Shown: in pieces, positions 47,769 to 63,145 of the stretch | Layout of the letters: each line of letters opens with the position of its first letter | How positions within the stretch are numbered: the stretch's first letter is position 1 | Sequence record: NC_047776.2 | Length of the DNA stretch: 64,000 nucleotides | From: Escherichia phage ESCO5 | Direction: 5' to 3' (one strand) | Translations under genes and position numbers: made by a program | The notes under the pieces: model-generated | What the model was told of the DNA's origin: nothing | Database searches by the model: none | The model's input: the letters and a program-made list of their open reading frames with translations, nothing else

Positions 47769-47800
47769 ATTTTGCCTCCTTTTTAAGTTAACGAATTTCT

Positions 47801-47849: not shown

Positions 47850-47864
47850 AAAATCATTTGTTAA

Positions 47865-48467
47865 TTATGGACATTCATACCATTCTTTTTTACCACCGAA
47901 GGCCATTACCACATCGCAAATATCCAGACCAGCTTTACCTACACCATATGCTTTCAGCTTCCATTCTCCATCTTCACGAACCAGGGAAGCCACGTGGCAG
48001 ATTGTGTTGCCAGCTACTTCAGGAGCCAGGAAGTCAAAATCCAGAATTTCCACATTACGCTCGGAGTCGAAGATTTTAAGCATACCTTCAGAAGCATGAC
48101 CAAAACGTTTCAGACCTGTATCATCATCAATAGTCAGAACAAAGGCAATCTCTTGTGCATCAGGAGAGATTTTAGCCAGAGTAATATCAATCTGCTCCAT
48201 GCTGCCAGTTCCATCACGAACATCGTCACCAGCAAAGGTAGAACGTTCAGGATCAAACTTATTAGCATAGCAAACCAGATGACGTGCAGACAGCATTTCA
48301 GGATTGCCAGCGGCATTGTGACGACAAACCAGTGCACTTACATCCAGATCCAGTTTAGAATCAGATTTCCAAGAGAACTCCAGGCGTAGTTCTTTCAGAG
48401 CCGGAGCAACTTTCTTCAGGGAAATTTTTTCGCTAGAGCCTTTTTTCAGGGAAATTTTATCAGTCAT
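47865..48467 (-). CDS. terD: TerD-domain protein
   Basis: 200 aa; aligns along its length to E. coli TerD: ISLKKG..ISLKK start, LDLDVSALV, GDDVRDGTG, IAFVLTIDD, GEWKLKAYGVGKAGL. Confidence 0.9.
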   Translation of the reverse strand: MTDKISLKKGSSEKISLKKVAPALKELRLEFSWKSDSKLDLDVSALVCRHNAAGNPEMLSARHLVCYANKFDPERSTFAGDDVRDGTGSMEQIDITLAKISPDAQEIAFVLTIDDDTGLKRFGHASEGMLKIFDSERNVEILDFDFLAPEVAGNTICHVASLVREDGEWKLKAYGVGKAGLDICDVVMAFGGKKEWYECP

Positions 48468-48482
48468 CTTTTGTCTCCTCTA

Positions 48483-48752
48483 TTATTTAAGTGTAATACC
48501 AGTTACAGTCAATTCTACTTCCAAAAGCTTAGATGTGTTTTGGATTGATACTAATTGTGCATGATGGTTTAGTTCTACAGCAGAATAATCATTTTCCCCA
48601 TCATCTACTTTTAAATAAACAATGATTTCACTAAGGTCTAAACCATTTTCGTCAAATGCATTTTCATAGACGAAAGTATCTCCTACATCCAAATCTTTAA
48701 TGGTAAGGCATCGTTTATTTACTTTTTGCTCATCAATTTCGAAGTTTAACAC
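48483..48752 (-). CDS. hypothetical small protein (DLDVGDTF family, paralog B)
   Basis: 89 aa; shares IKDLDVGDTFVYENAFDENGLD...VTGITLK with paralog A. Confidence 0.55.
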   Translation of the reverse strand: MLNFEIDEQKVNKRCLTIKDLDVGDTFVYENAFDENGLDLSEIIVYLKVDDGENDYSAVELNHHAQLVSIQNTSKLLEVELTVTGITLK

Positions 48753-48981
48753 TTCTTCCTCCTAATATTATCTCCGGTTTATATATACGAAGAATTATAG
48801 CATTTTCATTTTCTTTGTCAACCCATTCTTCATAATCAGGCCATACATGAATCTCTACTCTACTTACAATATCTTCCATTCGCACAGTCCCAATGAAATA
48901 CTCTTTGAGACTGCACATAATGAAAGCTTCTCTCTCGCGCCAATAATTTTCTATGACTTGAGAGGCAAGCTCGTCGATCAT
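48733..48981 (-). CDS. hypothetical protein
   Basis: 82 aa ORF between vWA gene and paralog B. Confidence 0.45.
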   Translation of the reverse strand: MIDELASQVIENYWREREAFIMCSLKEYFIGTVRMEDIVSRVEIHVWPDYEEWVDKENENAIILRIYKPEIILGGRSVKLRN

Positions 48982-49772
48982 TTTTTAGCACCTACTTTAA
49001 CAACCCACTCTCCGAACTCTTCAGATAAGAGTTTGTCATAAAGCTCTGAATCTGTCAAGTCTAAATCTTTAATGCCAATAAAACCAACATTATCATAAGC
49101 ATTTGCCAGTTCTTTCAGGAAGCCAAACTTCTCATTACCAACGCCAACCATGAACCAATAAATAGGTTTATTCTTATTCTCTTCAATAAGACGACGAACA
49201 GCACTAGGATCACCATTCTCACCATCCGTCTGGAAGAATACAACACCAGGGGTAACGTCAGCACCTGGTTCAGACACAGCTACAACCTTTTCACGCTCTA
49301 CAGATACTGTTTCAGTTTTACCAAGCAGACGATTAAAGAAGCCTTTCTTTGGAGCCTCTTCTTGTACCACTTGTTTAGTGGTAATATATTTGGTAACAGT
49401 GCCAAAATACTCATCGTAGATATCTGCCATTACAGGGGCGTAATTTGTTCCACCTCCGATACGAACATTACGCATACATTTACCAACATAGTCATCGTAA
49501 ACGTCTGCTGTTGCTGGAGTAAGCTCTTGGGAACTCGTATTGAAGGCCCACATATCAATTTGTTGATTATCGTCGAACAGCATACCAAAAGGAAGCAGTT
49601 TACCTACAAAATCACTCACTACCCCACTAGAATATAGACCATGCATACTACCAGAAATATCTAGAGCACATGCTACACGAAGAACAATCTTACCTTCATT
49701 CAGGTTCTTATTCTTTTTCAGAGAGAAAGCAAGGTTTTCTTGACGTTTTTTCAGGCTGATTTTATCGGACAT
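48978..49772 (-). CDS. vWA-domain protein (TerY-like)
   Basis: 264 aa; MIDAS motif in VLRVACALDISGSMHG; GGGTNYAPVM; N-terminus MSDKISLKK resembles TerD start. Confidence 0.7.
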   Translation of the reverse strand: MSDKISLKKRQENLAFSLKKNKNLNEGKIVLRVACALDISGSMHGLYSSGVVSDFVGKLLPFGMLFDDNQQIDMWAFNTSSQELTPATADVYDDYVGKCMRNVRIGGGTNYAPVMADIYDEYFGTVTKYITTKQVVQEEAPKKGFFNRLLGKTETVSVEREKVVAVSEPGADVTPGVVFFQTDGENGDPSAVRRLIEENKNKPIYWFMVGVGNEKFGFLKELANAYDNVGFIGIKDLDLTDSELYDKLLSEEFGEWVVKVGAKK

Positions 49773-49773
49773 A

Positions 49774-50052
49774 TTATTTCTCCTTCTTAAGTGTAATGTT
49801 GGTAACTTCTAAATCTACTTCCACCATATTTGTATCTGGCGGGATGCAATGAGTATAGCCTCGTTGTGCTAGTGATCCATTAATACAAATCGCACTGTTT
49901 GTGGAATTTTTAATGAACACCAAGTTACGGTAGGTATCCAACCCTGCGTCTTCATAGGCATCATAATACATGAATGTGTCCCCTACGTCAAGATCTTCGA
50001 AAGCAATAGGTAAATCCTGACCTTTTTCTTCTTGAATATTGAATCTAAACAC
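49774..50052 (-). CDS. hypothetical small protein (DLDVGDTF family, paralog A)
   Basis: Start moved to GTG behind GAGGAGG RBS, giving 92 aa; FEDLDVGDTFMYYDAYEDAGLD...VTNITLKKEK. Confidence 0.5.
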   Translation of the reverse strand: MFRFNIQEEKGQDLPIAFEDLDVGDTFMYYDAYEDAGLDTYRNLVFIKNSTNSAICINGSLAQRGYTHCIPPDTNMVEVDLEVTNITLKKEK

Positions 50053-50608
50053 GCATACCTCCTCTACCAATTTTGAAGCCCAAATCGTAAGCTTCCTTAG
50101 TAATCTTTTGTAACTCACTTATAGGAAGTGTTACAAGAGGATCATCTTCTTCAATTTCCATCTTGTCATCTTCTGTTTCAATGAGAGTATTATGCACTTT
50201 GTGATAAGGGTTGTCAACACGTTTAAACTTATTCTTTTCTGTGCTGAAAAAACAATCTGGATCTTCTTCACCATCACCCCAACCTTGATTAGGATCTCCG
50301 TCAGATTGTTCTGTAGGGATTTCACCTGTAAAGTACTCTTCCAGCACCATAGCAATACCGTCCCTTGGATTTGAGGAATGCATTAAATCACAAACCTTAC
50401 CCCAATCCATAGCCCATTCGAACCGTTCACGAACGCCATTTTCATCCTCTTTTCCAGAGAAAACACAACCATAACTATCATAGTTGCCATACATCTCTTC
50501 AATAACAACACCGTCTTTCAAAAGAAAGAGGTAGCAAGGTGATCCGTCGAAAGAAGTAGAAAGGGCAGCTTTGCCCGATTCTTTGCACAAAAAACTAAAA
50601 CAACCCAT
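50045..50608 (-). CDS. hypothetical protein
   Basis: 187 aa acidic protein. Confidence 0.5.
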   Translation of the reverse strand: MGCFSFLCKESGKAALSTSFDGSPCYLFLLKDGVVIEEMYGNYDSYGCVFSGKEDENGVRERFEWAMDWGKVCDLMHSSNPRDGIAMVLEEYFTGEIPTEQSDGDPNQGWGDGEEDPDCFFSTEKNKFKRVDNPYHKVHNTLIETEDDKMEIEEDDPLVTLPISELQKITKEAYDLGFKIGRGGMRV

Positions 50609-50811
50609 TACAAACCCTCCTTCAGATTATCAAGAGCTACAGTGGTTTCACAAAATTCTCCATAAGCTTTATGATGTTCCAGAAAAGCTTCGGGTCCACC
50701 CCAGTCATTATCTTGTGTATTCCAACCATCAATAAAAGCATCTTCAATGATTGTGATCAGTTCTTGTCGGGTTAACTGGATAATATTAGGATCGTTATCG
50801 TAGTTAAACAT
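50608..50811 (-). CDS. hypothetical small protein
   Basis: 67 aa ORF; start overlaps upstream small ORF stop. Confidence 0.45.
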   Translation of the reverse strand: MFNYDNDPNIIQLTRQELITIIEDAFIDGWNTQDNDWGGPEAFLEHHKAYGEFCETTVALDNLKEGL

Positions 50812-50977
50812 CTTCTTCCTCCTCTAAAATATGAAACCCGTAATTACAATAGTCCTGAAAGGTTTCGTGCGCAAGATCTTCTATATCCTCTTGAGACATA
50901 TCATCTTCAATTTCGATATCCACAACCTCATTGCATCCACACCAAGCAGTTTCAATATTCACTCGTAATATTTTCAT
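50804..50977 (-). CDS. hypothetical small acidic protein (not in ORF track)
   Basis: About 57 aa; ATG overlaps upstream stop (TAATG) behind GAGGAGGAGGAG; fills 165-nt gap. Confidence 0.35.
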   Translation of the reverse strand: MKILRVNIETAWCGCNEVVDIEIEDDMSQEDIEDLAHETFQDYCNYGFHILEEEEDV

Positions 50978-51174
50978 TACTCCTCCTCCTCATTGAAGTC
51001 AATATCTGCAAGGAGTTCGAATTTACGGAAGTTACGACAACCTTCATAAATATAACAATCACGACAAACTGCTAGAACACTTGGGGGATATATGCCTCCC
51101 ATCGGTGCGAATCGTTTTTCGTCATCATAACGGACACCAATGTCTTCATCAATTATATAGATACGGATTCTCAT
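50977..51174 (-). CDS. hypothetical small protein
   Basis: 65 aa with Cys pairs. Confidence 0.45.
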   Translation of the reverse strand: MRIRIYIIDEDIGVRYDDEKRFAPMGGIYPPSVLAVCRDCYIYEGCRNFRKFELLADIDFNEEEE

Positions 51175-52283
51175 TTACCAAGCCCTCGTTTCACAGCAGC
51201 TACCATCCCGTCTTCCAGAGATTGAACTTCATTAATATAATCAACACGAGCAGCACGGGCTTCCGTATTGATGCGGTTAGTTTCTTCCAACATCTTAACC
51301 AAGTTTTCCTGATCGTGACGCAGAGTTTCAATATCCAACACTTGACGGTTAGCCAGTGCTGCTGCTTCGATCTGATTCTGTGTGGCAAGATCGCTACCTA
51401 GTTTAATTGCCAGGTTAAATTCATCAAGAACGTTATTCTGCGTCTCTGCTGCTTTCATTTGACGTAAGCTCTCGATATACATTGAGAAGTTAGCAGAGTA
51501 AGCAGGAATAACATTATTTACTATGTTACGCGCAGATCGCATTAAGCTTGCAGAAACTTTTTGCATACCTTGTACACGCGGTCCCATTTGGACACACAGT
51601 AGGCGCAACGCCTTTAAATCTGCAATACGAATCTCCAGGAGATCCAAAGTATCTCGGATCACTTGTCGCTGTTCTACGGCATCTTCTGGAAGAGCAGCCA
51701 AAGCTTGTTCTTCTTTTTCATAGGTTGCTGTTAGAAGCTGCATATCTCGGTTCAAACTTGCAGCATATTGTCCAATAGCTTGGTGTAGCTTTTCAAGATA
51801 TACCAAGGAATCTTCTTCTTTGCGAATATCCATTTGAAGGTTCTTTACCAACTCTTCAATACGGTTATTAACATTATCAAACTCCCCAAACAGGTCTTCT
51901 TTCATACCCATAACTTTTTTAATGAGTTTAGTAATACCCTTGCTTTGTTTAATAGAGTTTGGATCAAGTTGTTTTGCCTGTTTAATCAAGGCTGTGAGTC
52001 GTTCACTCATCTGATCGCCTTGATTACTACGTTGATGTTTTAACACCTCGGCATTCAAGGAACGCAAGGTTGTTCCTGCCTCTGCCCCAATCTCTTCGAT
52101 CTCTTGTCGGGTCATAGAAGGTAAAACTGGAACTTCTTGCGGTGCTGCTGGTGCATAAACAGGACTGGCATCTAACACACTTGGAGCAAATACAGATTTA
52201 CTTGCATCTGTTGTTGCAGCGAATACACTCATTTCAGACTTCTTCTGACCACCAGTAGCTGCTTTTAAAAATGGACTTGTCAT
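51171..52283 (-). CDS. TelA-like (toxic anion resistance family) protein, candidate
   Basis: 370 aa helical/coiled-coil protein; assignment rests on size, composition and linkage to TerD/TerC; not motif-verified. Confidence 0.4.
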   Translation of the reverse strand: MTSPFLKAATGGQKKSEMSVFAATTDASKSVFAPSVLDASPVYAPAAPQEVPVLPSMTRQEIEEIGAEAGTTLRSLNAEVLKHQRSNQGDQMSERLTALIKQAKQLDPNSIKQSKGITKLIKKVMGMKEDLFGEFDNVNNRIEELVKNLQMDIRKEEDSLVYLEKLHQAIGQYAASLNRDMQLLTATYEKEEQALAALPEDAVEQRQVIRDTLDLLEIRIADLKALRLLCVQMGPRVQGMQKVSASLMRSARNIVNNVIPAYSANFSMYIESLRQMKAAETQNNVLDEFNLAIKLGSDLATQNQIEAAALANRQVLDIETLRHDQENLVKMLEETNRINTEARAARVDYINEVQSLEDGMVAAVKRGLGK

Positions 52284-52870
52284 TCTTCATTCTCCTCTTC
52301 TGCATCTCTTATATATGGTGAAACACCGTACTCTTTAGCTACTTTAACCCAATCATCCCATTTATACAACCATAATTTTCCTTCAGTTCCTTCTTTATCT
52401 GATTTCAACCACATGTTAGGTTGCTTGCCTGGGTACATGCGATTAGGTTTACGATTATAACCTCTAACACATCTTGTCGCAAACCTATCTACCAGAACAA
52501 GAACATATTTATATTCGTGGTTCAACGGCTCTTTGGAAGTGGCTTTAGGATTAGCTCCTAATTCTGCTGCCAGTTTTTGCCAATGAGCACCGTGTCTACT
52601 AAACTTACCCATACAACCATCAATAGCATGAGCAATTTCGTGCTTCATTGTATCCACGATCATATCTCTTGTAGAGTTCTTATGCAAGTGCCAATTTACA
52701 ACAACAATTTTATCTCGGTAGTTGCACCAACCGAAAGAGTTATTAACTTTGTTTCTAACACAAGCTTTATATCCTGCTTCACGTAACATGTTGTAGTAAA
52801 CAGGAAAATCTTCTTTTATTTCCTGCATCACTTCCCACCACAAGAGTTGCAAGTCTCTCTCGGTATGCAT
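52280..52870 (-). CDS. SprT-like zinc metallopeptidase
   Basis: 196 aa; HEIAHAIDG (HExxH) followed by RHGAHWQKLAAELG, as in SprT/WLM family. Confidence 0.55.
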   Translation of the reverse strand: MHTERDLQLLWWEVMQEIKEDFPVYYNMLREAGYKACVRNKVNNSFGWCNYRDKIVVVNWHLHKNSTRDMIVDTMKHEIAHAIDGCMGKFSRHGAHWQKLAAELGANPKATSKEPLNHEYKYVLVLVDRFATRCVRGYNRKPNRMYPGKQPNMWLKSDKEGTEGKLWLYKWDDWVKVAKEYGVSPYIRDAEEENEE

Positions 52871-52873
52871 AAC

Positions 52874-53467
52874 TTACACCTTAAAAGCGAAATGCGTGGT
52901 CGTGGCTTCAAAATCAGGGCCAGATAAACTTGCACTGAAATCTGAAATATTTGTAATTAAAAAGCTTTTATGCATACCTAACACAGCCACGCTTTCAATA
53001 TCTTCTACTAACATTTCAATCATGTTAGAAACATGGCTGAACGTAGAGTTTTGTTTTTTGATGGTGTAGAAAGAAAGATTCCCACCTGCTATATAAGACA
53101 CCTCTTCAAAATCTTTAATCGTATATTGTGTGCCATCAGTAAAGAAAATGGTAGCTTTATTAGTAGCACGTTTCTTGTTTTTTGGTCCTTTTTTACGTTT
53201 ACTGCGAGTAGGCAAACCGTTTGGAAATACCGTAGCTACAAATTCTTCAGGAGAAACCTCCTTACCGAAATCATAACCGTAAGAAACAGCGTCTATAAAC
53301 TCGTCGTCTTCATTTTTAAAATAATGAAAATAGGGCCAATTTGAGAGATTATCGAGCATCTTATGCTCATCCACAGCAGAGAACGTATCCCTCAAAGCAC
53401 GTGTGATTTGCAAAGCATTAGGCAAACTTTTAACACCTGTAATGGAAGTACGAATAGAAATTGTCAT
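52874..53467 (-). CDS. hypothetical protein
   Basis: 197 aa ORF. Confidence 0.5.
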   Translation of the reverse strand: MTISIRTSITGVKSLPNALQITRALRDTFSAVDEHKMLDNLSNWPYFHYFKNEDDEFIDAVSYGYDFGKEVSPEEFVATVFPNGLPTRSKRKKGPKNKKRATNKATIFFTDGTQYTIKDFEEVSYIAGGNLSFYTIKKQNSTFSHVSNMIEMLVEDIESVAVLGMHKSFLITNISDFSASLSGPDFEATTTHFAFKV

Positions 53468-53481
53468 TGTTTTTCTCCTTA

Positions 53482-53919
53482 TTAACGTCGCTTGCTACGA
53501 GATGAACTCTTTTTACTTAAAGGACTATTGTAAGATTTACGAGTTGTATAGCTACTATTTGTTTTAAAAGTTTGTCTCGGCTTTTCATAAGTTTTTATCT
53601 CTTGTTTAGGCTTACTATAAAAATTAGTTTTCGGTTTAGGTGTATTATAATGCTTATTAATAATCGTTCTGTTATCGTTATAATCCCCACTGCTACGATT
53701 ACTACCGCCACTCATCATATGCCCTAACAACATACCTGTAGCAAACTCACCAACACCGCTACTACTAGAACCGCCACCATTGTTGATAATAGTTGTATCT
53801 CCGTCAGATCCTTGTTGAGCGTATTGTTGAGGAGGTTGTTGGTATTGTGCAGGATTTGTTTCATCCTCGCAAGCTGTTAAAAAGATACAACCAATTAAAA
53901 TCAGGGCTAGTTTTTTCAT
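53482..53919 (-). CDS. predicted lipoprotein
   Basis: Start moved to ATG behind GAGGA RBS; MKKLALILIGCIFLTAC signal peptide with lipobox LTAC; Gln/Pro/Gly/Ser-rich mature part; basic C-terminus. Confidence 0.55.
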   Translation of the reverse strand: MKKLALILIGCIFLTACEDETNPAQYQQPPQQYAQQGSDGDTTIINNGGGSSSSGVGEFATGMLLGHMMSGGSNRSSGDYNDNRTIINKHYNTPKPKTNFYSKPKQEIKTYEKPRQTFKTNSSYTTRKSYNSPLSKKSSSRSKRR

Positions 53920-54106
53920 ATTTGCTTTCCTCGTTTTGGCTATTAATACATCTGTGTTTGAAATCTCCAGAGAAGCAATAAAGTTGCTCTCCATCTCGGT
54001 ATAAACTCACTTTACTGCCGTTGATTACGCTTGTCAATACAAAAATTACAACAAACAACCCTATTGCAAAACAAATATTTTCAAACACAACCAACAAGTA
54101 TTTCAT
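53861..54106 (-). CDS. small membrane protein overlapping lipoprotein gene start
   Basis: 81 aa; N-terminal TM FAIGLFVVIFVLTSVI; ATG overlaps upstream TGA (ATGA); 3' end overlaps lipoprotein start in another frame. Confidence 0.4.
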   Translation of the reverse strand: MKYLLVVFENICFAIGLFVVIFVLTSVINGSKVSLYRDGEQLYCFSGDFKHRCINSQNEESKYEKTSPDFNWLYLFNSLRG

Positions 54107-54453
54107 TTTAAAAATACCTCATCATCAGTTTCATTATCCCAGAAGAACAAGTCCCAACCATTCGGATCATTCCATTTAGCTGCTGGAGAAGTCCATATTT
54201 GCTCGATATCAATATTCAAAACTTCACCGTTTCGTTTTGAAACAGCTTTAGTTAATTCCCAACGGGATACAGGCTCCACTTCCCCTGAACCACTCCCACA
54301 ACAAGCTACCACATTAGGAGGCAAATTAATTGGATCTTTGGTCACAATCATAACGCTTACCCCAGGGTAAACTTTTGAAAGATAATCTAAAACGTAATCC
54401 ACATCACCAGATAAATCCCAAACAAGTTCTTGAATTTCATCAAAATTATTCAT
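54103..54453 (-). CDS. hypothetical acidic protein
   Basis: 116 aa ORF. Confidence 0.5.
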   Translation of the reverse strand: MNNFDEIQELVWDLSGDVDYVLDYLSKVYPGVSVMIVTKDPINLPPNVVACCGSGSGEVEPVSRWELTKAVSKRNGEVLNIDIEQIWTSPAAKWNDPNGWDLFFWDNETDDEVFLK

Positions 54454-54495
54454 AAGTCTCTCCTATAAAATAGCCTCCCGAAGGAGGCTCATCTA

Positions 54496-55470
54496 TTAAA
54501 CAGCAGCTTCTTCTTTTTCAGGGAAGATAAAGCTTGCAATAACACCAAGAGATAATGTGCCTAGAACAATCATCAGACTTACGTTAGGGGAAATATCATG
54601 CGGGAGGAATGACCACTTGGCATGAAGTGTTTCACCGAACGGGTGATACATAAGTTTAGCACCAACAAACACCAGAACCACAGCAACAGCTTTCTCTAAG
54701 TGAACCAGATATTTCACAGCTACACTTAACACAAAGAAAAGTGCACGTAAACCAAGAACAGCCATCAGCATTGCAGAATAAACTAGCAGAGGTTCTTGTG
54801 TCACACCGATTACAGCCGGAACTGAATCAAAAGAGAAGACAATATCTGTAAGCTCAATAACAAACACACAAAGAAGAGCAGGAGTTGCATATTTAATACC
54901 ATTCTTAATGGTAATGAACTTTTCACCATCTAGTGCATTGTGCACAGGCAGAACTTTACCTACTAAACGAACAGCCCAATGCTTAGAGTAATCAATATCC
55001 TCTTCTTCGTCACCACCTTTGATGATAGCCACGGCAGACCAAGCTACAATCAAACCGAACAACACTTGGACCGACCAATGAAGGTTAAACAAAGCGGTCC
55101 CTGCTGCAACAAAAATACCTCGGAAGACAATGGCTCCTGCAATCCCCCAAAGTAAAATCTTATGTTGAAGATGTGTGCTCTTAATTCCAAAGCTTGCAAA
55201 AATTGCCATGAATACCATCAGGTTATCTACAGAAAGACTCTTTTCCAACACATAGCCACTTAGGAAAAGCGCGGCAAACTCTTTACCATGTTCTACCCAA
55301 ATGAATGCGTAATATCCTAAAGCTAAAGCAATCCAAAAAACAGACCAAAGCAAAGCAGATTTAATTCCAATTTCTTTATTCTCTTTATGACCAAAGAAAT
55401 CGATACCAATAGACAATGCCAAAATACCAACTAAAACAACTACATCAATAATTGGGAAACCGAGTTGCAT
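54496..55470 (-). CDS. terC: TerC-family integral membrane protein
   Basis: 324 aa polytopic membrane protein; LEKSLSVDNLMVF and ELTDIVFSFDSVPAVIGVT duplicated TerC signature. Confidence 0.8.
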   Translation of the reverse strand: MQLGFPIIDVVVLVGILALSIGIDFFGHKENKEIGIKSALLWSVFWIALALGYYAFIWVEHGKEFAALFLSGYVLEKSLSVDNLMVFMAIFASFGIKSTHLQHKILLWGIAGAIVFRGIFVAAGTALFNLHWSVQVLFGLIVAWSAVAIIKGGDEEEDIDYSKHWAVRLVGKVLPVHNALDGEKFITIKNGIKYATPALLCVFVIELTDIVFSFDSVPAVIGVTQEPLLVYSAMLMAVLGLRALFFVLSVAVKYLVHLEKAVAVVLVFVGAKLMYHPFGETLHAKWSFLPHDISPNVSLMIVLGTLSLGVIASFIFPEKEEAAV

Positions 55471-55551
55471 TCTTTTCTCCTCTCTTTGCGGGGAACTATT
55501 CCCCGCTTCATTTGATATATATCTTACTCTTTTTAAGAACTATGTCAACAC

Positions 55552-55773
55552 TTATTTTGTTGAATGAGAGGAAAAGATTCCTCGTAATACCGCCAGAATA
55601 AACGAAACACAAACCACGGTCCAGAAGGTTACTGGGACAGTGATATCTGCATGACCCATAACTTCAGCAACATAGTTGTAAGCCAGCAACAGTAACCAAG
55701 CTGGAATCAAACTAAGCATAAAAGCAATAACAAAAAAGCTTACCACCGCAATAATACCTGCAAAAACACCCAT
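55552..55773 (-). CDS. small membrane protein
   Basis: 73 aa; 2-3 hydrophobic segments. Confidence 0.45.
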   Translation of the reverse strand: MGVFAGIIAVVSFFVIAFMLSLIPAWLLLLAYNYVAEVMGHADITVPVTFWTVVCVSFILAVLRGIFSSHSTK

Positions 55774-55785
55774 ACTAATCTCCTC

Positions 55786-56259
55786 TTAAAGTTTATAAAT
55801 AGTCACATCGTGACCTGTTTTTACTAAAGTTTCTTCAATCATCACTTGGATGATAGCCCAATTACCTCCAGCATATCCAGCGCCAATCATAGGTAAGCCG
55901 ATCTTACATTTTTGGTCACGGAGAAGCACATCATTAGCCATAGCTATTAGTGCATCGTAAAGTGCATCATAGTCCAACTGACGACCTTTAGCATTGTATC
56001 CGTAACGGTATTGCCCGTATAGATTATATACCAAAGGGTCTGATTGTTCGTCTGGCACCCCTAAACTAAAAGAACCTAACTTACTTTGATCACCAGCCAT
56101 TGTGTCTAAATCTGCCGCATATGCATAAGGGAATGCTCGTTTAATTTGCGGAGCAATTCCTGCCCCCATATTACACATACAATTGCAACAATGAGCAATA
56201 ACAGTTACTTCACCTGCTTTAGCGGCATCAATAAGATTACCTGTTTTCATTTTAAGCAT
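55786..56259 (-). CDS. macro-domain protein (TARG1/DarG-type)
   Basis: Start moved to ATG behind AAGGAG RBS (158 aa); VIAHCCNCMCNMGAGIAPQI matches the AHCxxxxCxMGAGIA motif of TARG1-like macrodomains; IGLPMIGAGYAGG second motif. Confidence 0.65.
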   Translation of the reverse strand: MLKMKTGNLIDAAKAGEVTVIAHCCNCMCNMGAGIAPQIKRAFPYAYAADLDTMAGDQSKLGSFSLGVPDEQSDPLVYNLYGQYRYGYNAKGRQLDYDALYDALIAMANDVLLRDQKCKIGLPMIGAGYAGGNWAIIQVMIEETLVKTGHDVTIYKL

Positions 56260-56272
56260 TTTTAGCTCCTTA

Positions 56273-57100
56273 TTACAGAATGTGTTGTTTTGTGTAACGA
56301 TCCAAGAATTCAAAGTTTTCAGCATACTTTGAAATTCGGTTGTAACCTTCTCCCAAACATCCGAAGAAAAGTTGCTCTACATAGTAGTGTGGCAATTGGC
56401 TAAGAATGATTTTGAAGTCTTCGTGATTTTGGCCCATAAGATACTTAATAGGACGAACAAGACACTGTGCATCACGTTCTTCATTAATCATTTTAACAAA
56501 CGCTTCTGGTGTATTGATATAGTTAAAATTCAGTTTAGCTTCAGTATCTGCTTGATTACCTTCATATTTTGCAAAATACAAGAAGTAAACATCATTTTTA
56601 ACTTGATTTTCATCAAGAATCTCAATCAGTTTGTCTTCATGAGTTCCGGTGATATTTACATCATCAATGAACACAAGCTTCTTATCACCCCAGAATTCTT
56701 TGTTGCAGTAGAATGTATCCCCATCAATAAGTTTCTTACGACTAGCTTTATCCAAGAAACCATAATCGTTGATATAGCTAACTTTACGATGAATAATATC
56801 CAGTTCTGCTGAACGACCTTGATCATATTGTGCTTGCAACATATTAAAGTAATTAATAAAATGATCTGTCATCATTGTTGCAGCATTGTGCACATGGTTA
56901 TAAGGAGAAGGGATGATAACAAATTGTTCCCCAATATGTTTCATTGCCACTTGAGCAAAAAACTGAAGTACCAATTCTTTACCCATACGACGCGCAGCTT
57001 GGTTACTACCAAATTTCAATTTTGAATAGTCTTTGATATCAAAAGTAGCAGTTTCCAGGTCATCAAATTTATTTGCAAAAATTTGAGTTTGATTACGCAT
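56273..57100 (-). CDS. phosphoribosyltransferase (type I PRTase fold)
   Basis: 275 aa; PRPP-binding motif KKLVFIDDVNITGTHE. Confidence 0.65.
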   Translation of the reverse strand: MRNQTQIFANKFDDLETATFDIKDYSKLKFGSNQAARRMGKELVLQFFAQVAMKHIGEQFVIIPSPYNHVHNAATMMTDHFINYFNMLQAQYDQGRSAELDIIHRKVSYINDYGFLDKASRKKLIDGDTFYCNKEFWGDKKLVFIDDVNITGTHEDKLIEILDENQVKNDVYFLYFAKYEGNQADTEAKLNFNYINTPEAFVKMINEERDAQCLVRPIKYLMGQNHEDFKIILSQLPHYYVEQLFFGCLGEGYNRISKYAENFEFLDRYTKQHIL

Positions 57101-57749
57101 TTACAATTTCTCCTCTTTTAAGTTTCTCTAGTAAGTCGTTAGGGTTCTTAATATGACAGAAGTTAATCCCTATGTCAACACATTTACCATCAAATTCTTC
57201 GCTGTCCCCAACATGTAAAATCTCTTCAGCCTTCAAAGGAATGCTTGAATATGTGGCGGTCCTAACAAAGAATCTAGGATCTGGTTTACATAACAGATGT
57301 TCGTCTGAAAAATGCATAAATTCAAAACAATTCCAACTGTCGAACATACAAGCACGACGCAAAATATCCCCAGATATAAAATTAGTATTGCTTTTAATAC
57401 TAAGATCATATTTACCAGACAAGTATAGCAAACAAACTGGCAAATCTAAAGCGATATGTGGAGGAAATTTAAGAAACCATTGCTCACAATCAAAACGCAT
57501 TTGTGCAGATTCTACAGGGGTTAAACCTATCTTTCTTCCCAACATATTCCATGCATATGCTACACCTTCTGCACACCCATTTAGTGCAGCATTATCCATA
57601 ATTTCTTTGGCATCTTTATATGCTTCTTTTGCCGCACGTTCAGACATTCTACCATATGTAGCAATAGTGTGCGTACGTGCATCTGCATAGTTTTGATTGG
57701 CAGAAATAAGAGTATTCCATACATCAAAAGAAATATGTTTTATTGTCAT
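57093..57749 (-). CDS. HAD-superfamily hydrolase
   Basis: Start moved to ATG just after upstream stop (218 aa); motif I ISFDVWNTL and motif IV VGDSEEFDGK. Confidence 0.5.
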   Translation of the reverse strand: MTIKHISFDVWNTLISANQNYADARTHTIATYGRMSERAAKEAYKDAKEIMDNAALNGCAEGVAYAWNMLGRKIGLTPVESAQMRFDCEQWFLKFPPHIALDLPVCLLYLSGKYDLSIKSNTNFISGDILRRACMFDSWNCFEFMHFSDEHLLCKPDPRFFVRTATYSSIPLKAEEILHVGDSEEFDGKCVDIGINFCHIKNPNDLLEKLKRGEIVNA

Positions 57750-57750
57750 A

Positions 57751-58356
57751 CTAGGCCCACCACGCATCAAGATTTAAGTTACTGTCTACCACAACTTGTT
57801 CTATGTGGTAGCCTTTTATCTGTATCCCACTGTTCAAGAGCATATCATATGCTTCATTGAAACGCAACTTATCTTCTGCGGAATATAAGCGAGCATTGTA
57901 AAATCGGTAATCAAGTTCTTCAGCATTAGAAGAAATACGGAAGAAGTTTGTTTCTACTTCAGGATCACTTGCTGAAGTTTTAATGTGAACTTCTCCGTAA
58001 TTTTCTTTGCTTAGATCCATGAAAAGAACACAGGCAACATGTTTAAACATTCGTTCCAGTTTGTAACGAACAACATTGAAACCTGCGTTCTCAAGTTTTT
58101 CTACACATTGCAACATTAACGTAGTGTCGAGATCGCTTTGATACTTTGTTAACATACGATCACGTTGAGACTTTGTATCCCGATGTAAATCAATTGTTGT
58201 GCATTTGGCACCAATGATCTTAGCTGCTTTCATCAACTCTTCAGAACTAACGTTAGATAAAGTAAGATGAAAATGGGCTTTCCACACTTTTTTAGCAGGG
58301 ACACCAAAAGATTTATCCCCACTATTCGGCATGTTGACTACTACACTATGTTGCAT
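57751..58356 (-). CDS. hypothetical protein (possible 2H-phosphoesterase-like)
   Basis: 201 aa; one HxTx motif (HFHLTL); second motif not clear. Confidence 0.4.
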   Translation of the reverse strand: MQHSVVVNMPNSGDKSFGVPAKKVWKAHFHLTLSNVSSEELMKAAKIIGAKCTTIDLHRDTKSQRDRMLTKYQSDLDTTLMLQCVEKLENAGFNVVRYKLERMFKHVACVLFMDLSKENYGEVHIKTSASDPEVETNFFRISSNAEELDYRFYNARLYSAEDKLRFNEAYDMLLNSGIQIKGYHIEQVVVDSNLNLDAWWA

Positions 58357-58371
58357 TACTTATCTCCTCAC

Positions 58372-58596
58372 TTAAAATGGAAGTCTTTGAAGTTCATCTC
58401 CTCCGATATCAAGTAATTTAGCAACATCTCGATCAGAAAGCAACTCTTTTCTTTGTAAAATATCCACAAGGGTTGCAAGAATGTCCTTAACGTCCCGATC
58501 ACTGTTCTTCAAAAGTTCTCCTGCCGTCCCTACCCTATCTCCTACAGCAAAATATGTAACCATAAAACCTCCTACGCTAATCTGATTGCCAACCAC
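58372..58596 (-). CDS. hypothetical small protein
   Basis: 74 aa; likely starts at internal Met because 5' end overlaps nrdG. Confidence 0.4.
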   Translation of the reverse strand: MVGNQISVGGFMVTYFAVGDRVGTAGELLKNSDRDVKDILATLVDILQRKELLSDRDVAKLLDIGGDELQRLPF

Positions 58597-59047
58597 TCGC
58601 CGTTTTGGTCCATAATCTTTGATTATCTGACCCTCTGAAAGGTTTTGTGGTTGGATTGTTTATTTCATACTTTCCGTCTACAATAATGTCAACAAGATTT
58701 TTAATATACAAAGGCACTTCCTCAAAAGTATATCCTGTATACACCATTATATCTTTGCTTGACCCATAAACGTCTCTAACCTTTTCTATAAGGTTTTTAA
58801 CATTGTAAATATTCTGCGGATCTAATGGTTCTCCTCCTAAAATTGTTAAACCTTTTACAAACGGTCTTGACAAATCTTTTAAAACTTGCTCTACATTTTC
58901 GTTAGTGAACGGTTTCCCATAAGAATAAGACCAGGCTTTCTGGTTAAAACAGCCACGACAACCGTGGCTACAACCACTAACCCAGAGGGAGCACCTAACT
59001 CCCTCACCATTAATAAGATCTACAGGTTCATATCCTGCAAAATTCAA
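58577..59047 (-). CDS. nrdG: anaerobic ribonucleotide reductase activating protein
   Basis: 156 aa; radical-SAM CxxxCxxC motif in CSHGCRGC; immediately downstream of nrdD with overlapping stop/start. Confidence 0.85.
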   Translation of the reverse strand: MNFAGYEPVDLINGEGVRCSLWVSGCSHGCRGCFNQKAWSYSYGKPFTNENVEQVLKDLSRPFVKGLTILGGEPLDPQNIYNVKNLIEKVRDVYGSSKDIMVYTGYTFEEVPLYIKNLVDIIVDGKYEINNPTTKPFRGSDNQRLWTKTASGWQSD

Positions 59048-60858
59048 AGATGTTTCTCCCTTTGCAAAACTTCCTGCATTTTACCTTTGTTATAAGGCCG
59101 TGAATTAGGGGCAGAAAGATACCCTGATACACGTCTAACTACAGAAATAGTTTCTTCTTCATGGTTGCCACAATTAGGACACTCAAACCCTTTAGCCGTT
59201 GCCTTAAATTCTCCATGAAAACCACACTTAAAGCATTGATCCACGGGCTGATTAATACCAAAATAGTGAATATGTTCATAAGCGTAGTCTACTAAAGTCT
59301 CCAAAGCTTCTAAGTTATTCTTTAAGTTTGGTGTTTCGACATAACTTATGTTACCACCATTGCTAATCTGTGCAAAACCTGCTTCATAATCCCATTTTTC
59401 AAAAGGATTTGTTACCAACCATACAGGTTGATGAAAAGAATTAGTAAGATAGTCTCTTTCTACCAGACCTGGATATTTTTCATTTAAAGCTGTTGCAAAT
59501 TTATAGCACAAGGATTCTGCTGGAGTTCCATAAAGACTAAATGCCAACTTAGATCGTTCTTTAAACACAGCACACACATCTTTCATATGTTGCAGAATGT
59601 TTTTACCTAGTTCCTTTTTATCTTTTTCCTCTGGATAAAGGATTTCCAAAGCTTCGGCAAGACCTACATAACCAATACTAATAGAAGCATAACCACCTTC
59701 AAACAAAGCACCAATTTCATCGTTGGCATTTAAACGCGCTAAAGCCCCTTCCATGAAAAGAATAGGGTTTTCAGATGCTTTGGTATGTCTGATACGGTTT
59801 ACACGTAGCATGTGAGCATCGTAGGCTATCTCCATATGTTTATTAAGAAGATCGGTGAAAGATTCTCCTTTACTTCTCGCTTCCGCAGCAATCAGAGGCA
59901 AGTTGATAGAAACTACTCCAAGGTTGAATCGTCCATCATATTTTTCTCCTTGTTCGGTGGCATAGTACGACAAAAAGGAACGACAACCCATACTCGTAAC
60001 GGTACCATCTGCTGATCCCGTAACTTCTTTGTTCAAAGGAACAGAAATAAAATCTGGATAAATACGATCAGCACAACATGCCAAAGCTTGTTGCTTAAGG
60101 TCGTAGTTAGGATCACTAGGTTTCATGTTAACACCTTCTTGTAAAAAGAAAATAACTTTAGGGAATACAGGCGTTACATGATCTTTACCTAGACCGTTAC
60201 TATGCACTTTAAGATAGTTAGCTGTGATCATTCTGCCAAAAACAGAGGTATCCAGACCCATACTGATTGTAATAAAAGGAGATTGTCCATTAACACTCAT
60301 TAAAGTGTTAACCTGATACAAAAGAGTTTGCATAGCGTCATATACATCTTGTTCGGTCATTTCTAGGGCTTCTTTCCTTGCATAACAACCGTAGCGACGT
60401 TTGGTTATCTCCATGTTTTTAAGGAAACTGGCTTCAACATAAGGACTAAGACCTTTATCAATGTGCGCACACGTCTGACCTCCATACTGACTGGAGGCAA
60501 CAGCTTGGATGATTTGAGTTAGCACTGTAGTAGCTACTCCAATAGATTTTGGTTTTTCTATCTGTGCAGCACCGATCTTAAAACCATTCTCTAACATATC
60601 TTGATAATTAACAAGACAACAGTTTGTAAGAGGAGAGAGCAGATAATCCAAGTCGTGAATATGTCCAAAACCTTCTGTATGCCATTCTGACAAGTTTTTT
60701 GGCAGTATCTGTGTCATTGCCATATGTTTGCTTAAAATCCCCGCCAAGAGATCCCTGTGCGTGTTAACAAGGTGGGAAGGTTTGTTTGCATTCTCTCTAG
60801 TGTATGTTTCTGAAGTGCGATCTAAAAAAGAAAAAACATCTTGGTACAAATCTTTCAT
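59044..60858 (-). CDS. nrdD: anaerobic ribonucleoside-triphosphate reductase (class III)
   Basis: 604 aa; C-terminal zinc ribbon CFKCG...CPNCG and glycyl-radical motif RVSGYL. Confidence 0.9.
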   Translation of the reverse strand: MKDLYQDVFSFLDRTSETYTRENANKPSHLVNTHRDLLAGILSKHMAMTQILPKNLSEWHTEGFGHIHDLDYLLSPLTNCCLVNYQDMLENGFKIGAAQIEKPKSIGVATTVLTQIIQAVASSQYGGQTCAHIDKGLSPYVEASFLKNMEITKRRYGCYARKEALEMTEQDVYDAMQTLLYQVNTLMSVNGQSPFITISMGLDTSVFGRMITANYLKVHSNGLGKDHVTPVFPKVIFFLQEGVNMKPSDPNYDLKQQALACCADRIYPDFISVPLNKEVTGSADGTVTSMGCRSFLSYYATEQGEKYDGRFNLGVVSINLPLIAAEARSKGESFTDLLNKHMEIAYDAHMLRVNRIRHTKASENPILFMEGALARLNANDEIGALFEGGYASISIGYVGLAEALEILYPEEKDKKELGKNILQHMKDVCAVFKERSKLAFSLYGTPAESLCYKFATALNEKYPGLVERDYLTNSFHQPVWLVTNPFEKWDYEAGFAQISNGGNISYVETPNLKNNLEALETLVDYAYEHIHYFGINQPVDQCFKCGFHGEFKATAKGFECPNCGNHEEETISVVRRVSGYLSAPNSRPYNKGKMQEVLQREKHL

Positions 60859-60932
60859 TATTAATCCTTATTTTGTGAGTAGAACTATTATTCTACCTCT
60901 TTCAACCGAAAAAAGCTTTGAGGGAAATCAAA

Positions 60933-60953
60933 AAAGGCGCAAAGTGCGCCTTT
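60933..60953 (-). terminator. rho-independent terminator upstream of nrdD
   Basis: On minus strand AAAGGCGC-acuuu-GCGCCUUU followed by UUUUGAUUU. Confidence 0.65.
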
Positions 60954-60961
60954 AAGTTTTA

Positions 60962-62347
60962 TCATTTGGAGAGGAATTGTCTTCCCATGATCTTACCGTT
61001 CTTCACAGCGGTCCCATCGTGTCCATTGTAATCCCAGGTTCCATCGATATTACGCAAGAAGCTATCACGAACAGTATAGGCTTTACCGTTCTCTACTTTA
61101 CTTTCTTCCACAATGATTGCCATAACAAGCTTATTTTCAATTTCGGTAGTAACCGATTCTTTGATACCCTCTGTAACTTCACGATCATATTGGATATAAA
61201 CTCGCTCCTCGGTTACTTGCACGTCTACCACATTTTTAAATGTGTAGGTCTGTTGCGTAGTGTAGAGGACACGAACGACACTCTTCTTACCTACCGGAGG
61301 CTTCTTACGAGGCTTACGGTAACGTGGTTTAGGGTTGTTAGTTGGAAGCCAACCAACAATATCCCGATCATATCCAACATGACCCCAAGTGAAATGCGTA
61401 GCCGATCCACTATCCGTAGTTCCGTCACGAAAGAGAACTTCTACGTGACCACCACAAGGGCGGTGTCCACCATTATTATAGTTGTATTTTGCCGTGCGCG
61501 GGAGAATGAAGTATTCTTTAATCGCCCACTCTTCCAGATTGTCGATATTCCAAGTGAATACTGTTCCCTTAGCAACATCTGTTTGACCATTGTTGAAGCG
61601 AACCTGCACGAAATCTTCCGAAGGCATAACACCTGTGTTCGGCAGATATTCAAATGCAGTATCTTCCGCTACAAACTGTTCTTCCTCTTGCTCCTCAATA
61701 CTTGGCACAGGCGCAGCTTCATCGTATTTCGCAGCAAACATATTTTTAAATTCTTGAGCCGTGACTTCTACAAGGCCGCGATCACCAGTAGCAGCAGAGT
61801 GTGGGCGTGGTAAATCCCCAACTTCAATATGCATTGCATCTAAGCCTGCTTGACGATCAAAGAAGATAACCTTGCGGAATTGTTTATCTTTATATTGTGG
61901 CAGTTCATACATACTTGGATCGATTGTCTTCAAACGTTCAGCATCTTCTGGCTTCCAGAAGCTTTTACCTGTTGCAAATCTAAAGTCTACCAGTAGTTTA
62001 ACAACATCTCCTAATGATAAACTATCTGCATCTACGAAAACGTCTTCGATTCCCAATAACCCTGATTTCTTAAGAATCAAATCTAACATGTAACCTCCTG
62101 TGGTTTGTTCTGCGTCTGGATAACGATCAACACTGGTGCTGGTTACACCGTTTATTTCACCAGTGGAGGCATTGTAGGAAATATATGGGAAGGTCATATC
62201 GTTCATTGCAAAATCACCTGAACAGGTTGGATCATCTTCTCCCTCCCAGCCATACACCTTCACAATACCTTCACACAATTTGTCATACACACCAGCGCGA
62301 CGTGCTGCTTCAGCAACTTCCTGTTTACGGGCAAATTTATTAATCAT
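60962..62347 (-). CDS. hypothetical protein
   Basis: Start moved to ATG behind AGGAGGA (461 aa); no recognisable motifs. Confidence 0.5.
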   Translation of the reverse strand: MINKFARKQEVAEAARRAGVYDKLCEGIVKVYGWEGEDDPTCSGDFAMNDMTFPYISYNASTGEINGVTSTSVDRYPDAEQTTGGYMLDLILKKSGLLGIEDVFVDADSLSLGDVVKLLVDFRFATGKSFWKPEDAERLKTIDPSMYELPQYKDKQFRKVIFFDRQAGLDAMHIEVGDLPRPHSAATGDRGLVEVTAQEFKNMFAAKYDEAAPVPSIEEQEEEQFVAEDTAFEYLPNTGVMPSEDFVQVRFNNGQTDVAKGTVFTWNIDNLEEWAIKEYFILPRTAKYNYNNGGHRPCGGHVEVLFRDGTTDSGSATHFTWGHVGYDRDIVGWLPTNNPKPRYRKPRKKPPVGKKSVVRVLYTTQQTYTFKNVVDVQVTEERVYIQYDREVTEGIKESVTTEIENKLVMAIIVEESKVENGKAYTVRDSFLRNIDGTWDYNGHDGTAVKNGKIMGRQFLSK

Positions 62348-62897
62348 GATTCCTCCTGTTAATTGCCATAGATGCACGAGGTTCGGCTATGGCTGTTGCA
62401 TAAATATATGGATGACCTTGTGGGGACAATCTTGTTCCGAATGACCCTAATTCTAAACCATTCATGTCTTCCACGTCAAGCCCTATTTCTGTTTCTACAA
62501 TTCTTGTTTGGACTTTGTAGTAGGTCCAGAAGAAGTATCGCATTTCTTCGGCATACTCTTTCACTTCACCAAAGCTGGGATAGAACTCAATCAACTCCAG
62601 CTTCAAGAAGATGTTGAAGTGAGAATCATCCAACACTTCCTCTGTGCGGTAACATGGTGTCAGGGCCATGTAGGGATGACCAGCGATAAACTCGTAGCCA
62701 TCCTTTTCCATTTGCAAGAATGATTGCTCGGCACTGGCAACATAAAACTTCCCATTAGGATGCCCCAAAGGAGCATCTTCTTTGCCAGGTGGCAGTGTGA
62801 ATGCCAAAATATCTGCATCCACTAAATAAGGAACATCTAACATTTCAGCAAAGCGTCCATAACTCTGGATGGCTTCGGCAATCACACCTGTGTTCAT
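62340..62897 (-). CDS. hypothetical protein with class II aminoacyl-tRNA-synthetase-like motif 2
   Basis: 185 aa; CYRTEEVLDDSHFNIFLKLELIEFY resembles class II aaRS motif 2 (fRxE...H..eFt.lE.Y); only partial core present. Confidence 0.3.
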   Translation of the reverse strand: MNTGVIAEAIQSYGRFAEMLDVPYLVDADILAFTLPPGKEDAPLGHPNGKFYVASAEQSFLQMEKDGYEFIAGHPYMALTPCYRTEEVLDDSHFNIFLKLELIEFYPSFGEVKEYAEEMRYFFWTYYKVQTRIVETEIGLDVEDMNGLELGSFGTRLSPQGHPYIYATAIAEPRASMAINRRNHD

Positions 62898-63145
62898 GAC
62901 CTTCCTCCTGTGCGGAAAGCGCGTTTAGTAATGTTGGACATAATGATTAAATCTTGTAAAGTCATATCTGGGAACTGTTGTTCTAAAACTCCCTCGACAG
63001 CCCCTATAATATCTGACAATTCAACAAGTTGCATTATTTTGCAATCCTGCTCAACAGCATCAAAAAGTTCTTCTACTTCCTCTTTAATCTTTTCTATGCT
63101 GCCATAAGGTTGTTTCTTAATGTCTGTTATGTGATACCCTGCCAT
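62894..63145 (-). CDS. MazG-like nucleotide pyrophosphohydrolase, candidate
   Basis: 83 aa all-helical; EExxE-type motif IKEEVEELFDAVEQD. Confidence 0.4.
   Translation of the reverse strand: MAGYHITDIKKQPYGSIEKIKEEVEELFDAVEQDCKIMQLVELSDIIGAVEGVLEQQFPDMTLQDLIIMSNITKRAFRTGGRS

Follow-up and report, generated by a model that had tools for sequence, protein, structure and literature searches.

A Ter-linked HAD-PRTase_3 gene pair and a predicted Tk.4-type macro domain: two probably separate units at one locus of Escherichia phage ESCO5

Escherichia phage ESCO5 (sequence record NC_047776.2) was analysed over a stretch of 64,000 nucleotides (the window), in which three adjacent genes encode a HAD-family protein, a phosphoribosyltransferase (PRTase) of the PRTase_3 family and a macro domain protein. 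The 5.1 kb around these genes match Escherichia phages ESCO25 and phAPEC8_ev052 at 99.4% identity and approximately sixty further records at >95%; on sequence identity, the window is a segment of a phAPEC8-like E. coli myophage of the genus Phapecoctavirus (Stephanstirmvirinae). An initial annotation, made from the letters of the sequence, had treated the three genes as one functional triad. Comparison with other phage and bacterial genomes shows instead that only the HAD and PRTase genes are conserved together and found fused, while the macro domain is widespread and free-standing. The locus is thus probably made up of two separate units, namely a HAD-PRTase_3 pair linked to Ter genes and a macro domain of the Tk.4/AdfM type that would remove ADP-ribose of the DarT2 type.

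Every gene of the locus is carried on the minus strand, with the HAD, PRTase and macro genes lying head to tail. Their limits were set by sequence reading and by comparison with homologues:

57749..57093, minus strand: HAD gene, ATG at 57749, stop codon at 57095-57093, 218 amino acids (aa)
57100..56273, minus strand: PRTase gene, ATG at 57100, stop codon at 56275-56273, 275 aa
56259..55786, minus strand: macro gene, ATG at 56259, stop codon at 55788-55786, 157 aa

The HAD gene begins 1 nt past the TAG of an upstream gene for a 201-aa protein. The PRTase gene starts within ATGCGTAA, giving an overlap of 8 nt with the end of the HAD gene, and has GAGGAG 9 nt upstream of its ATG. A spacer of 13 nt then separates the PRTase stop codon from the macro ATG, which has AAGGAG 7 nt upstream. 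This gene geometry suggests translational coupling. The order of the genes, their overlap or abutment and their coordinates are all as initially given, and both of the motifs quoted at that time (IAHCCNCMCNMGAGIA and KLVFIDDVNITGTHE) were found. Two longer open reading frames (ORFs) were rejected: the TTG-started version of HAD in the ORF list receives no support from homologues, and a 179-aa macro ORF starting at 56325 owes its extra length to an in-frame ATG further upstream and is artefactual, all homologues beginning with MLK or MIK.

The PRTase is a member of PRTase_3 (Pfam PF15610, ComF-like type I; E 2.7e-41, 142.1 bits against a cut-off of 28.7), with the match spanning positions 9-264 of the 264 of the profile, so that the profile search agrees with the PRTase motif proposed from the sequence. 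It also matches phrog_13415 (E 5e-161). The protein possesses the phosphoribosyl pyrophosphate (PRPP) loop LVFIDDVNITGTHE, in which residues D146, D147, I150, T151, G152, H154 and E155 are invariant among 19 homologues, and from these residues it is predicted to be catalytically competent. No close solved or characterised relative was identified by phmmer or by profile search of the PDB, the latter aligning only the PRPP loop, to HPRTs (E 0.16), and a scan of NCBIfam gave no match. PADLOC matched nothing for the PRTase, the HAD protein or the Ter proteins described below.

The HAD protein matches phrog_14393 (E 6e-121) and gives partial matches to HAD-IA models of NCBIfam; its Pfam score is below the cut-off (19.5 bits against 26.4), with members of its family and the fusion proteins described below reaching 48-64 bits, over the Pfam Hydrolase/HAD_2 thresholds. 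Motif I (57726-57746) reads FDVWNTL, and its nucleophile Asp (D8) is invariant in 13 family members. Motif II (S-N-T-N-F), motif III (C-K-P-D) and motif IV (H-V-G-D-S-E-E-F-D, of the form GDxxxD) are conserved in the same 13-member alignment. The residue at Asp+2 is Trp in 13 of 13 aligned members, of phage, rhizobial and Bacteroidetes origin, as well as in 12 of 12 fusions inspected. A general acid/base at Asp+2 (DxDxT) typifies HAD phosphomonoesterases. The HAD phosphatase initially named is thereby recovered in its nucleophile and motifs II-IV, but not in the residue at Asp+2, where the Trp is invariant; the family-wide D-x-W motif is a new observation here.

The PRTase was identified in 155 phage records, among Stephanstirmvirinae, Rhizobium phages, jumbo phages of Caulobacter and Brevundimonas and others, and also on many metagenomic phage contigs. 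Eight phage loci of unrelated lineages were compared, drawn from Stephanstirmvirinae, Rhizobium Kleczkowskaviridae, a Caulobacter jumbo phage and metagenomic phage contigs. The HAD gene stands directly upstream of the PRTase gene in all eight, usually with an overlap of 1 to 32 nt, gaps being no larger than 25 nt. A scan of 100,044 species genomes returned 15 loci, and the HAD-PRTase_3 pair is present in 15 of 15: twelve lie on replicons of Rhizobium, Sinorhizobium and Ensifer, two in Bacteroidetes metagenome-assembled genomes (MAGs), and one, although deposited as a MAG, matches the window at 99% identity and represents this same phage. On pRL10 of Rhizobium johnstonii 3841, a conjugative and symbiosis-associated plasmid, the pair forms an isolated two-gene cassette with an overlap of 14 nt (L027, 11670-13143), located near repA and with no Ter genes. 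Comparable cassettes occur in many Sinorhizobium and Ensifer genomes. In Rhizobium phages, a Nudix gene is found approximately 250 nt downstream of the pair, past a 62-aa ORF.

A profile search for PRTase_3 among 1.84 billion representative proteins gave 819 clusters, and in 13 of the best 150 of these HAD and PRTase_3 are fused into a single protein of 486-841 aa. In these fusions a HAD-family hidden Markov model matches approximately 210 residues upstream of the PRTase_3 domain (E 1e-25 to 1e-53). The HAD stretch is N-terminal in 12 of the 13 (486-544 aa), and Pfam confirmed both domains in the two fusions scanned. The order of the gene pair, HAD and then PRTase_3, is kept in the fusions, which provide the best argument for joint action of the two proteins. 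The pairing of HAD with PRTase_3 is coupled and obligate; together they constitute a mobile and frequently fused unit that extends well beyond Ter loci, which is newly documented here.

The initial annotation had overlooked that the pair lies within a phage-borne Ter cluster. The genes concerned, with a protease gene lying among them, are:

54496..55470, minus strand: terC, TerC/Alx-family integral membrane protein (Pfam TerC, E 3e-40)
52870..52280, minus strand: SprT-like zinc metalloprotease (Pfam SprT-like, E 4.2e-09)
51171..52283, minus strand: TelA-like protein (Pfam TelA, E 3.2e-33)
48978..49772, minus strand: vWA-TerF-like protein (Pfam PF10138, E 1.6e-37)
47865..48467, minus strand: TerD-domain protein (Pfam TerD, E 3.2e-28)

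TerC is further matched by NCBIfam TIGR03718 (318.6 bits against a cut-off of 246). TerC, TelA, vWA-TerF-like and TerD all lie within 9 kb, at 47865-55470 (Pfam E 1e-28 to 1e-40), and the HAD-PRTase pair (56273-57749) and terC are enclosed in one terminator-bounded unit. No TerB, ATP-grasp amidoligase or TIM-barrel lyase was identified among the scanned proteins, several small ORFs of the cluster being unscanned or without a Pfam match. The SprT-like and TelA genes overlap by 4 nt (52280-52283, an ATGA-type junction), and protease and TelA may thus be coupled.

Of the eight phage loci, five (the window, L002, L003, L005 and L006) have Ter genes beside the pair, as do both Bacteroidetes loci. 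One of the latter, in a Tannerella MAG (L026), has the pair inside a canonical Ter/TerY-P operon composed of three TerD genes, two vWA genes, TerY with TerY_C, PP2C, a Ser/Thr kinase, HAD, PRTase_3 and a P-type ATPase.

Anantharaman, Iyer and Aravind (2012), as relayed by PMC7824862, have described Ter systems in which PRTases and HAD enzymes produce a derivative of a nucleoside or nucleotide. Phage-borne Ter genes with a PRTase and HAD have been noted in Acinetobacter phage vB_AbaM_ME3 'and certain other related smaller tailed phages', with superinfection exclusion or xenobiotic tolerance proposed as the role of phage Ter (Iyer et al. 2021, PMC7824862). A search for literature on phAPEC8 and TerC found no papers. 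The locus resembles the module of 2012 in that PRTase_3 and HAD adjoin TerC, TelA, vWA-TerF-like and TerD, and in that the same HAD-PRTase_3 pair is found inside a bacterial TerD/TerY-P operon (L026). It differs in possessing a single PRTase, with no ATP-grasp or TIM-barrel lyase gene beside the pair and no TerB detected among the proteins scanned, in that the pair is separated from terC by the macro gene and by the gene of a small membrane protein, and in the Trp at Asp+2 of its HAD protein. The module itself has been predicted computationally only.

The macro domain protein gives a borderline Pfam match (22.1 bits against 22) and matches phrog_335 (E 1.6e-55). Structure prediction with AlphaFold2 (AF2) returned a macro fold with a predicted local distance difference test score (pLDDT) of 94.2, and the top Foldseek matches were TARG1 (4j5s), BT1257 (2fg1), DarG (5m3e), Poa1p and SCO6735 (5e3b), with probability 1.0 and template modelling (TM) scores of 0.73-0.87 for TARG1, BT1257, DarG and SCO6735. 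By phmmer the best solved match is SCO6735 (5e3b, E 4.7e-13), followed by BT1257, TARG1 and DarG, and the DarG model of PADLOC is matched with an E-value of 1.9e-10. These results establish a stand-alone protein of the ALC1-like class (TARG1/DarG/SCO6735) with a three-layer alpha/beta/alpha fold.

The active site includes H23, N26, MGAGIA, NLYGQ83 and GAGYAGGNW. The residues that bind ADP-ribose (N26, M31-G-A-G-I-A36 and G126-A-G-Y-A-G-G132) are invariant or nearly so among 45 homologues. HMMER alignment to TARG1 places Gln83 at the catalytic Lys84 and Ala130 at Asp125, and both substitutions are conserved in the 45 homologues (consensus NLYGQ and GAGLAGGxW, the latter reading GAGYAGGNW here). 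Since Gln and Ala occupy the Lys and Asp positions, the protein is of the SCO6735/Tk.4 type and not of the TARG1/DarG type. The TARG1/DarG class initially assigned to it is accordingly right at the level of the ALC1-like class (phmmer, Foldseek and PADLOC) but not for the catalytic residues, whose absence had been named at the start as grounds for refutation; the set present is that of SCO6735. This assignment of the Phapecoctavirus macro domain to the Gln-type Tk.4/SCO6735 group, read from its residues, is new here. With 34.8 bits against a cut-off of 250, the protein does not attain the NCBIfam DarG equivalog, having the macro domain only and no second domain, and no darT gene was found near it in the gene list of the window.

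Comparison with SCO6735 of Streptomyces coelicolor (PDB 5E3B) shows that Gln83, His23 and Asn26 correspond to its Gln85, His24 and Asn27, and that the mobile loop is of equal length in both proteins, 5 residues longer than in TARG1, and contains basic residues. It has been described that Gln85 and Asn27 of SCO6735 are needed for hydrolysis of thymidine-linked ADP-ribose, that its His24 mutant is inactive through misfolding, and that the protein rescues cells from DarT (PMC9411070). Unlike the phage protein, SCO6735 is a bacterial housekeeping or stress protein, and its Lys89 is not conserved position for position. Human TARG1 (C6orf130) and the DarG macro domain belong to the same ALC1-like subclass, are the closest folds (Foldseek TM 0.76-0.87) and have the ADP-ribose-binding glycine loops in common, but Lys84 of TARG1 and Lys80 of DarG are replaced by Gln83, and Asp125 of TARG1 by Ala130. 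The DarT-binding C-terminal domain of DarG is also lacking.

The macro domain is 37% identical to Tk.4 of phage T4 over 124 residues (E 9e-22). Tk.4, also named AdfM, is likewise a stand-alone phage macrodomain of approximately 155 aa; the two have AH.CNC, MG.G.A, NLY.Q and GAG..G.W in common, with Gln at the TARG1-Lys position (NLYTQ in Tk.4). A transposon screen and a clean knockout have shown that T4 tk.4, named adfM in that work, is needed against DarTG2 (bioRxiv 10.1101/2025.11.20.689424). T4 belongs to another phage family and tk.4 has another genomic setting, the macro gene studied here adjoining Ter and PRTase genes; the effect on DarTG2 is known for Tk.4 and is predicted for the window protein from its homology to Tk.4 and SCO6735. 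A second phage-encoded orphan macrodomain, AdfM of PhiKZ (gp104), strips DarT2 ADP-ribose from DNA and counters DarTG2 (Cell Rep 2026, PMC13309987). This protein is of the DarG-like Lys type (N23/K78), in contrast to the Gln type of the window protein.

By tblastn the macro family was identified in 2,939 phage records, including T-even phages (Tk.4), rV5-like, FelixO1-like and Vi1-like phages, and it is therefore approximately nineteen times more widespread in phages than the PRTase (155 records). It adjoins the HAD-PRTase pair only in Phapecoctavirus and Justusliebigvirus. In the latter genus it forms the C-terminal 150 aa (49% identity) of a 238-aa protein, the N-terminal part of which, in Escherichia phage alia (L005, 12851-13567), consists of an extra ~85 aa with no Pfam match. 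In L003 a macro gene lies 7 kb from the pair, and none was found near the pair in L002, L004, L006, L007, L008, the related Klebsiella phage KP13-16 or any of the bacterial loci. The closest orthologue outside the subfamily (50% identity), that of phiTE, is surrounded by small ORFs, and PRTase, HAD and Ter genes are missing from its neighbourhood. No macro domain was seen in the HAD-PRTase_3 fusions examined.

Macro homologues of approximately 49% identity were also seen on two jumbo-phage-like contigs (L009 and L010, 1-12450 in each), in an island of NAD+, ADP-ribose and RNA-repair genes: Nudix, Glu_synthase-like, NAMPT, NADAR, an unknown gene, Macro, HAD_SAK_2, SIR2, PRPP synthetase, PhyH and Thg1. 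Five records labelled as Campylobacter, Acinetobacter or Pseudomonas phages (MG065639.1, MG065656.1, MG065689.1, OP562383.1 and OR584014.1) possess the locus at identities typical of Justusliebigvirus or Phapecoctavirus; their host labels look doubtful, the three 'Campylobacter' records all being 146,366 bp.

The remaining features of the locus are as follows:

58577..60858, minus strand: nrdD and nrdG (anaerobic ribonucleotide reductase and its activase), from the annotations of 99%-identical phages
57751..58356, minus strand: 201-aa protein (phrog_22504), its fold without a known match, abutting the HAD gene with a 1-nt gap
55552..55773, minus strand: 73-aa predicted small membrane protein (phrog_16065) of hydrophobic sequence, between macro and terC
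55488..55548, minus strand: weak promoter-like TTGACA-16-TAAGAT and G+C-rich hairpin, upstream of terC

Terminator-like hairpins on the minus strand were identified in two places only, ahead of nrdD (60953..60933) and behind terC (54489..54472), terC being the last gene before the second hairpin. nrdD, nrdG, a 63-aa gene, the 201-aa gene, HAD, PRTase, macro, the 73-aa gene and terC thus likely form one transcription unit. Promoter-like sites were no commoner than in shuffled sequence, so that this operon structure rests on the terminators and on gene spacing. The 73-aa protein is found in the same position in Justusliebigvirus (L005, 60% identity), and a strong hairpin (GCGGGGAA/TTCCCCGC) is located between its gene and terC. 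Many TerC/Alx genes are under riboswitch control. A riboswitch upstream of the TerC/Alx gene (e.g. yybP-ykoY) was looked for in an Rfam E-value scan of 44000-64000 and rejected, this giving only a chance-level match to STnc40. This match to a Salmonella small RNA (60930-60986, 27.6 bits against a gathering threshold of 45, E 0.39) falls on the hairpin of the bidirectional terminator that precedes nrdD and is most likely due to chance.

The 201-aa protein matches two 'AbiEi' antitoxin models of PADLOC over nearly its full length (E 5e-13), with no match in a Pfam scan. Two motifs on its strands, HxHxT and ExHxK, are invariant, and modelling with AF2 (pLDDT 82) led to no convincing fold match. 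The protein was rejected as a member of the HAD-PRTase module, as its homologues in other phages do not adjoin HAD-PRTase; it may be an orphan antitoxin-like anti-defence gene. On one phage contig (L032) a homologue overlaps the gene of Acb1 (anti-CBASS), with a NADAR gene near, and in Escherichia phage alia (L005) the place of the 201-aa gene is taken by one for a 386-aa AAA-type ATPase-like protein. Further along the minus strand (43401-46545), four consecutive glycosyltransferase-like genes adjoin those for DNA primase/helicase and DNA polymerase; one gives a weak match to a TET-associated glycosyltransferase (E 0.0013), and the four might serve in modification of DNA or of surface glycans.

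In the reading preferred here, the two units would be neighbours by chance in an accessory, early-type operon running from nrdD-nrdG to terC. As the first unit, HAD and PRTase_3 would act as one two-component enzyme, in which the ComF-like PRTase may attach 5-phosphoribose from PRPP to a base-like acceptor and the coupled HAD protein would process the product, conventionally by removal of the 5'-phosphate, to yield a nucleoside-like small molecule. The pair would serve the adjacent phage Ter module, presumed to be a membrane-associated stress and exclusion system, and the metabolite may be a signal or ligand of Ter or may interfere with Ter/TerY-P systems of the host. As the second unit, the macro domain would be an orphan antitoxin-like ADP-ribosylglycohydrolase that removes ADP-ribose, placed by the host's DarT2-type toxins, from thymidine in single-stranded phage DNA, and possibly other ADP-ribose conjugates. 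The counter-defence against DarT-like toxins suggested initially is, given the Tk.4/AdfM homologue, the best reading for the macro domain alone; for the triad as a whole it is not supported.

Several observations weigh against this two-unit reading. For the pair, an invariant Trp at Asp+2 is atypical of HAD phosphomonoesterases, so that dephosphorylation may not be the step it catalyses, and PRTase_3 has no close solved structure. No Ter gene is found near the pair in L004, L007, L008 or the rhizobial loci including pRL10, and the Ter linkage is for this reason to be regarded as recurrent but facultative. For the macro domain, identity to Tk.4 is only 37%, and the Tk.4 result is that of a preprint in which the enzymatic mechanism was inferred; furthermore, Val25 of SCO6735, the backbone of which is proposed to be catalytic, corresponds to Cys24. 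For the separation of the two, the macro gene keeps its place behind the PRTase gene across two genera at 49% identity and has a Shine-Dalgarno-coupled start, and some functional link is hence possible. The island homologues, standing beside another HAD protein and PRPP-using enzymes, hint at work on soluble ADP-ribose derivatives.

This last activity is the substance of a possible but unlikely alternative, by which the macro domain, resembling Poa1p, would act as a phosphatase on ADP-ribose-1''-phosphate or process soluble ADP-ribose derivatives. Its task would then be to clear NAD-derived signals of the host, or what NAD-dependent RNA repair leaves behind, and not to repair DNA. Public annotation calls the protein a 'phosphatase' (A1pp motif, phrog_335), Poa1p structures are among its top Foldseek matches, its homologues lie beside HAD_SAK_2, SIR2, NADAR, Nudix and Thg1 in the phage islands, and surveys by the Aravind group (PMC7824862 among them) propose soluble ADP-ribose derivatives as the preference of phage Macro proteins. 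However, SCO6735 is the best sequence match (E 4.7e-13, against 1e-3 for Poa1p), the residues by which it cleaves thymidine-ADP-ribose are conserved, and the sole genetic phenotype known in the family is the loss of DarTG2 resistance in T4 without tk.4.

It is unlikely, too, that all three genes serve one pathway, the second of the two readings initially offered, in which the PRTase product would be trimmed by HAD and the resulting ribosyl or ADP-ribosyl-like compound or intermediate bound or hydrolysed by the macro domain. The gene overlap and the Shine-Dalgarno-coupled 13-nt spacer inside one terminator-bounded unit, the retained position in Justusliebigvirus (49% identity), and the jumbo-phage homologues next to a different HAD protein and near NAMPT and PRPP synthetase are all consistent with it. 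Yet the adjacency is confined to one phage subfamily and is absent from at least six other pair-bearing lineages and from all bacterial loci, the fusions examined contain no macro domain, the macro family is some nineteen times the commoner in phages, and its characterised relatives act on macromolecular ADP-ribose. The retained place behind the PRTase gene and the observations on Nudix genes, NAD islands and Poa1p leave room for action on soluble ADP-ribose or for a looser link through PRPP and NAD, but they do not tip the balance against these data on distribution. Little credence is given to a version of the single pathway built on the D-x-W motif, in which the HAD-PRTase_3 pair would make a non-canonical nucleoside or nucleotide by chemistry beyond the mere cleavage of a phosphate monoester, as a signal or antimetabolite for Ter or against Ter/TerY-P systems of the host, with the macro domain of Phapecoctavirus and Justusliebigvirus recruited to bind or process it.

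It is just as doubtful that the pair performs ordinary nucleotide salvage for phage DNA synthesis unrelated to Ter, as its annotation 'putative orotate phosphoribosyltransferase' would have it. The pair is downstream of nrdD/nrdG here and near DHFR and PurA in Rhizobium phages, and several loci hold it without Ter genes. Against this, no characterised salvage PRTase is matched significantly (only the generic PRPP loop, E 0.16, with no NCBIfam match), the pair is repeatedly accompanied by Ter genes, both in phages and in Bacteroidetes, and an obligatorily fused hydrolase that undoes nucleotide formation makes no sense in salvage. Very improbable is a triad devoted to NAD+/ADP-ribose counter-defence, an extension of the first reading initially offered, with the macro domain freeing ADP-ribose and PRTase and HAD recycling the ribose-phosphate or rebuilding NAD+ precursors: phage NAD+ reconstitution pathways are known, a Nudix gene lies ~250 nt downstream of the pair in Rhizobium phages and macro homologues co-localise with NAMPT, Prs and NADAR, but PRTase_3 is ComF-like type I and not NAMPT-type, the settings of the pair include Ter/TerY-P operons and a rhizobial plasmid without NAD genes, and the locus has no adenylyltransferase.

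A plausible-looking "triad" is thus resolved into separate evolutionary units, both of kinds already described: the PRTase and HAD of Ter systems computationally, phages included, and AdfM experimentally in 2025-2026. In phAPEC8-like therapeutic E. coli phages the macro domain is probably an anti-DarTG2 factor of the Gln type known from T4 Tk.4, which bears on the prediction of their host range. The HAD-PRTase_3 pair is compact, mobile and often fused; at least 155 sequenced phages have it, as do rhizobial replicons and Ter/TerY-P loci of Bacteroidetes. The invariant Trp at Asp+2 of its HAD protein suggests that the accepted dephosphorylation step should be re-examined, and the phage pair offers a small, two-gene entry point to the Ter "nucleoside-like metabolite" that has been postulated since 2012.

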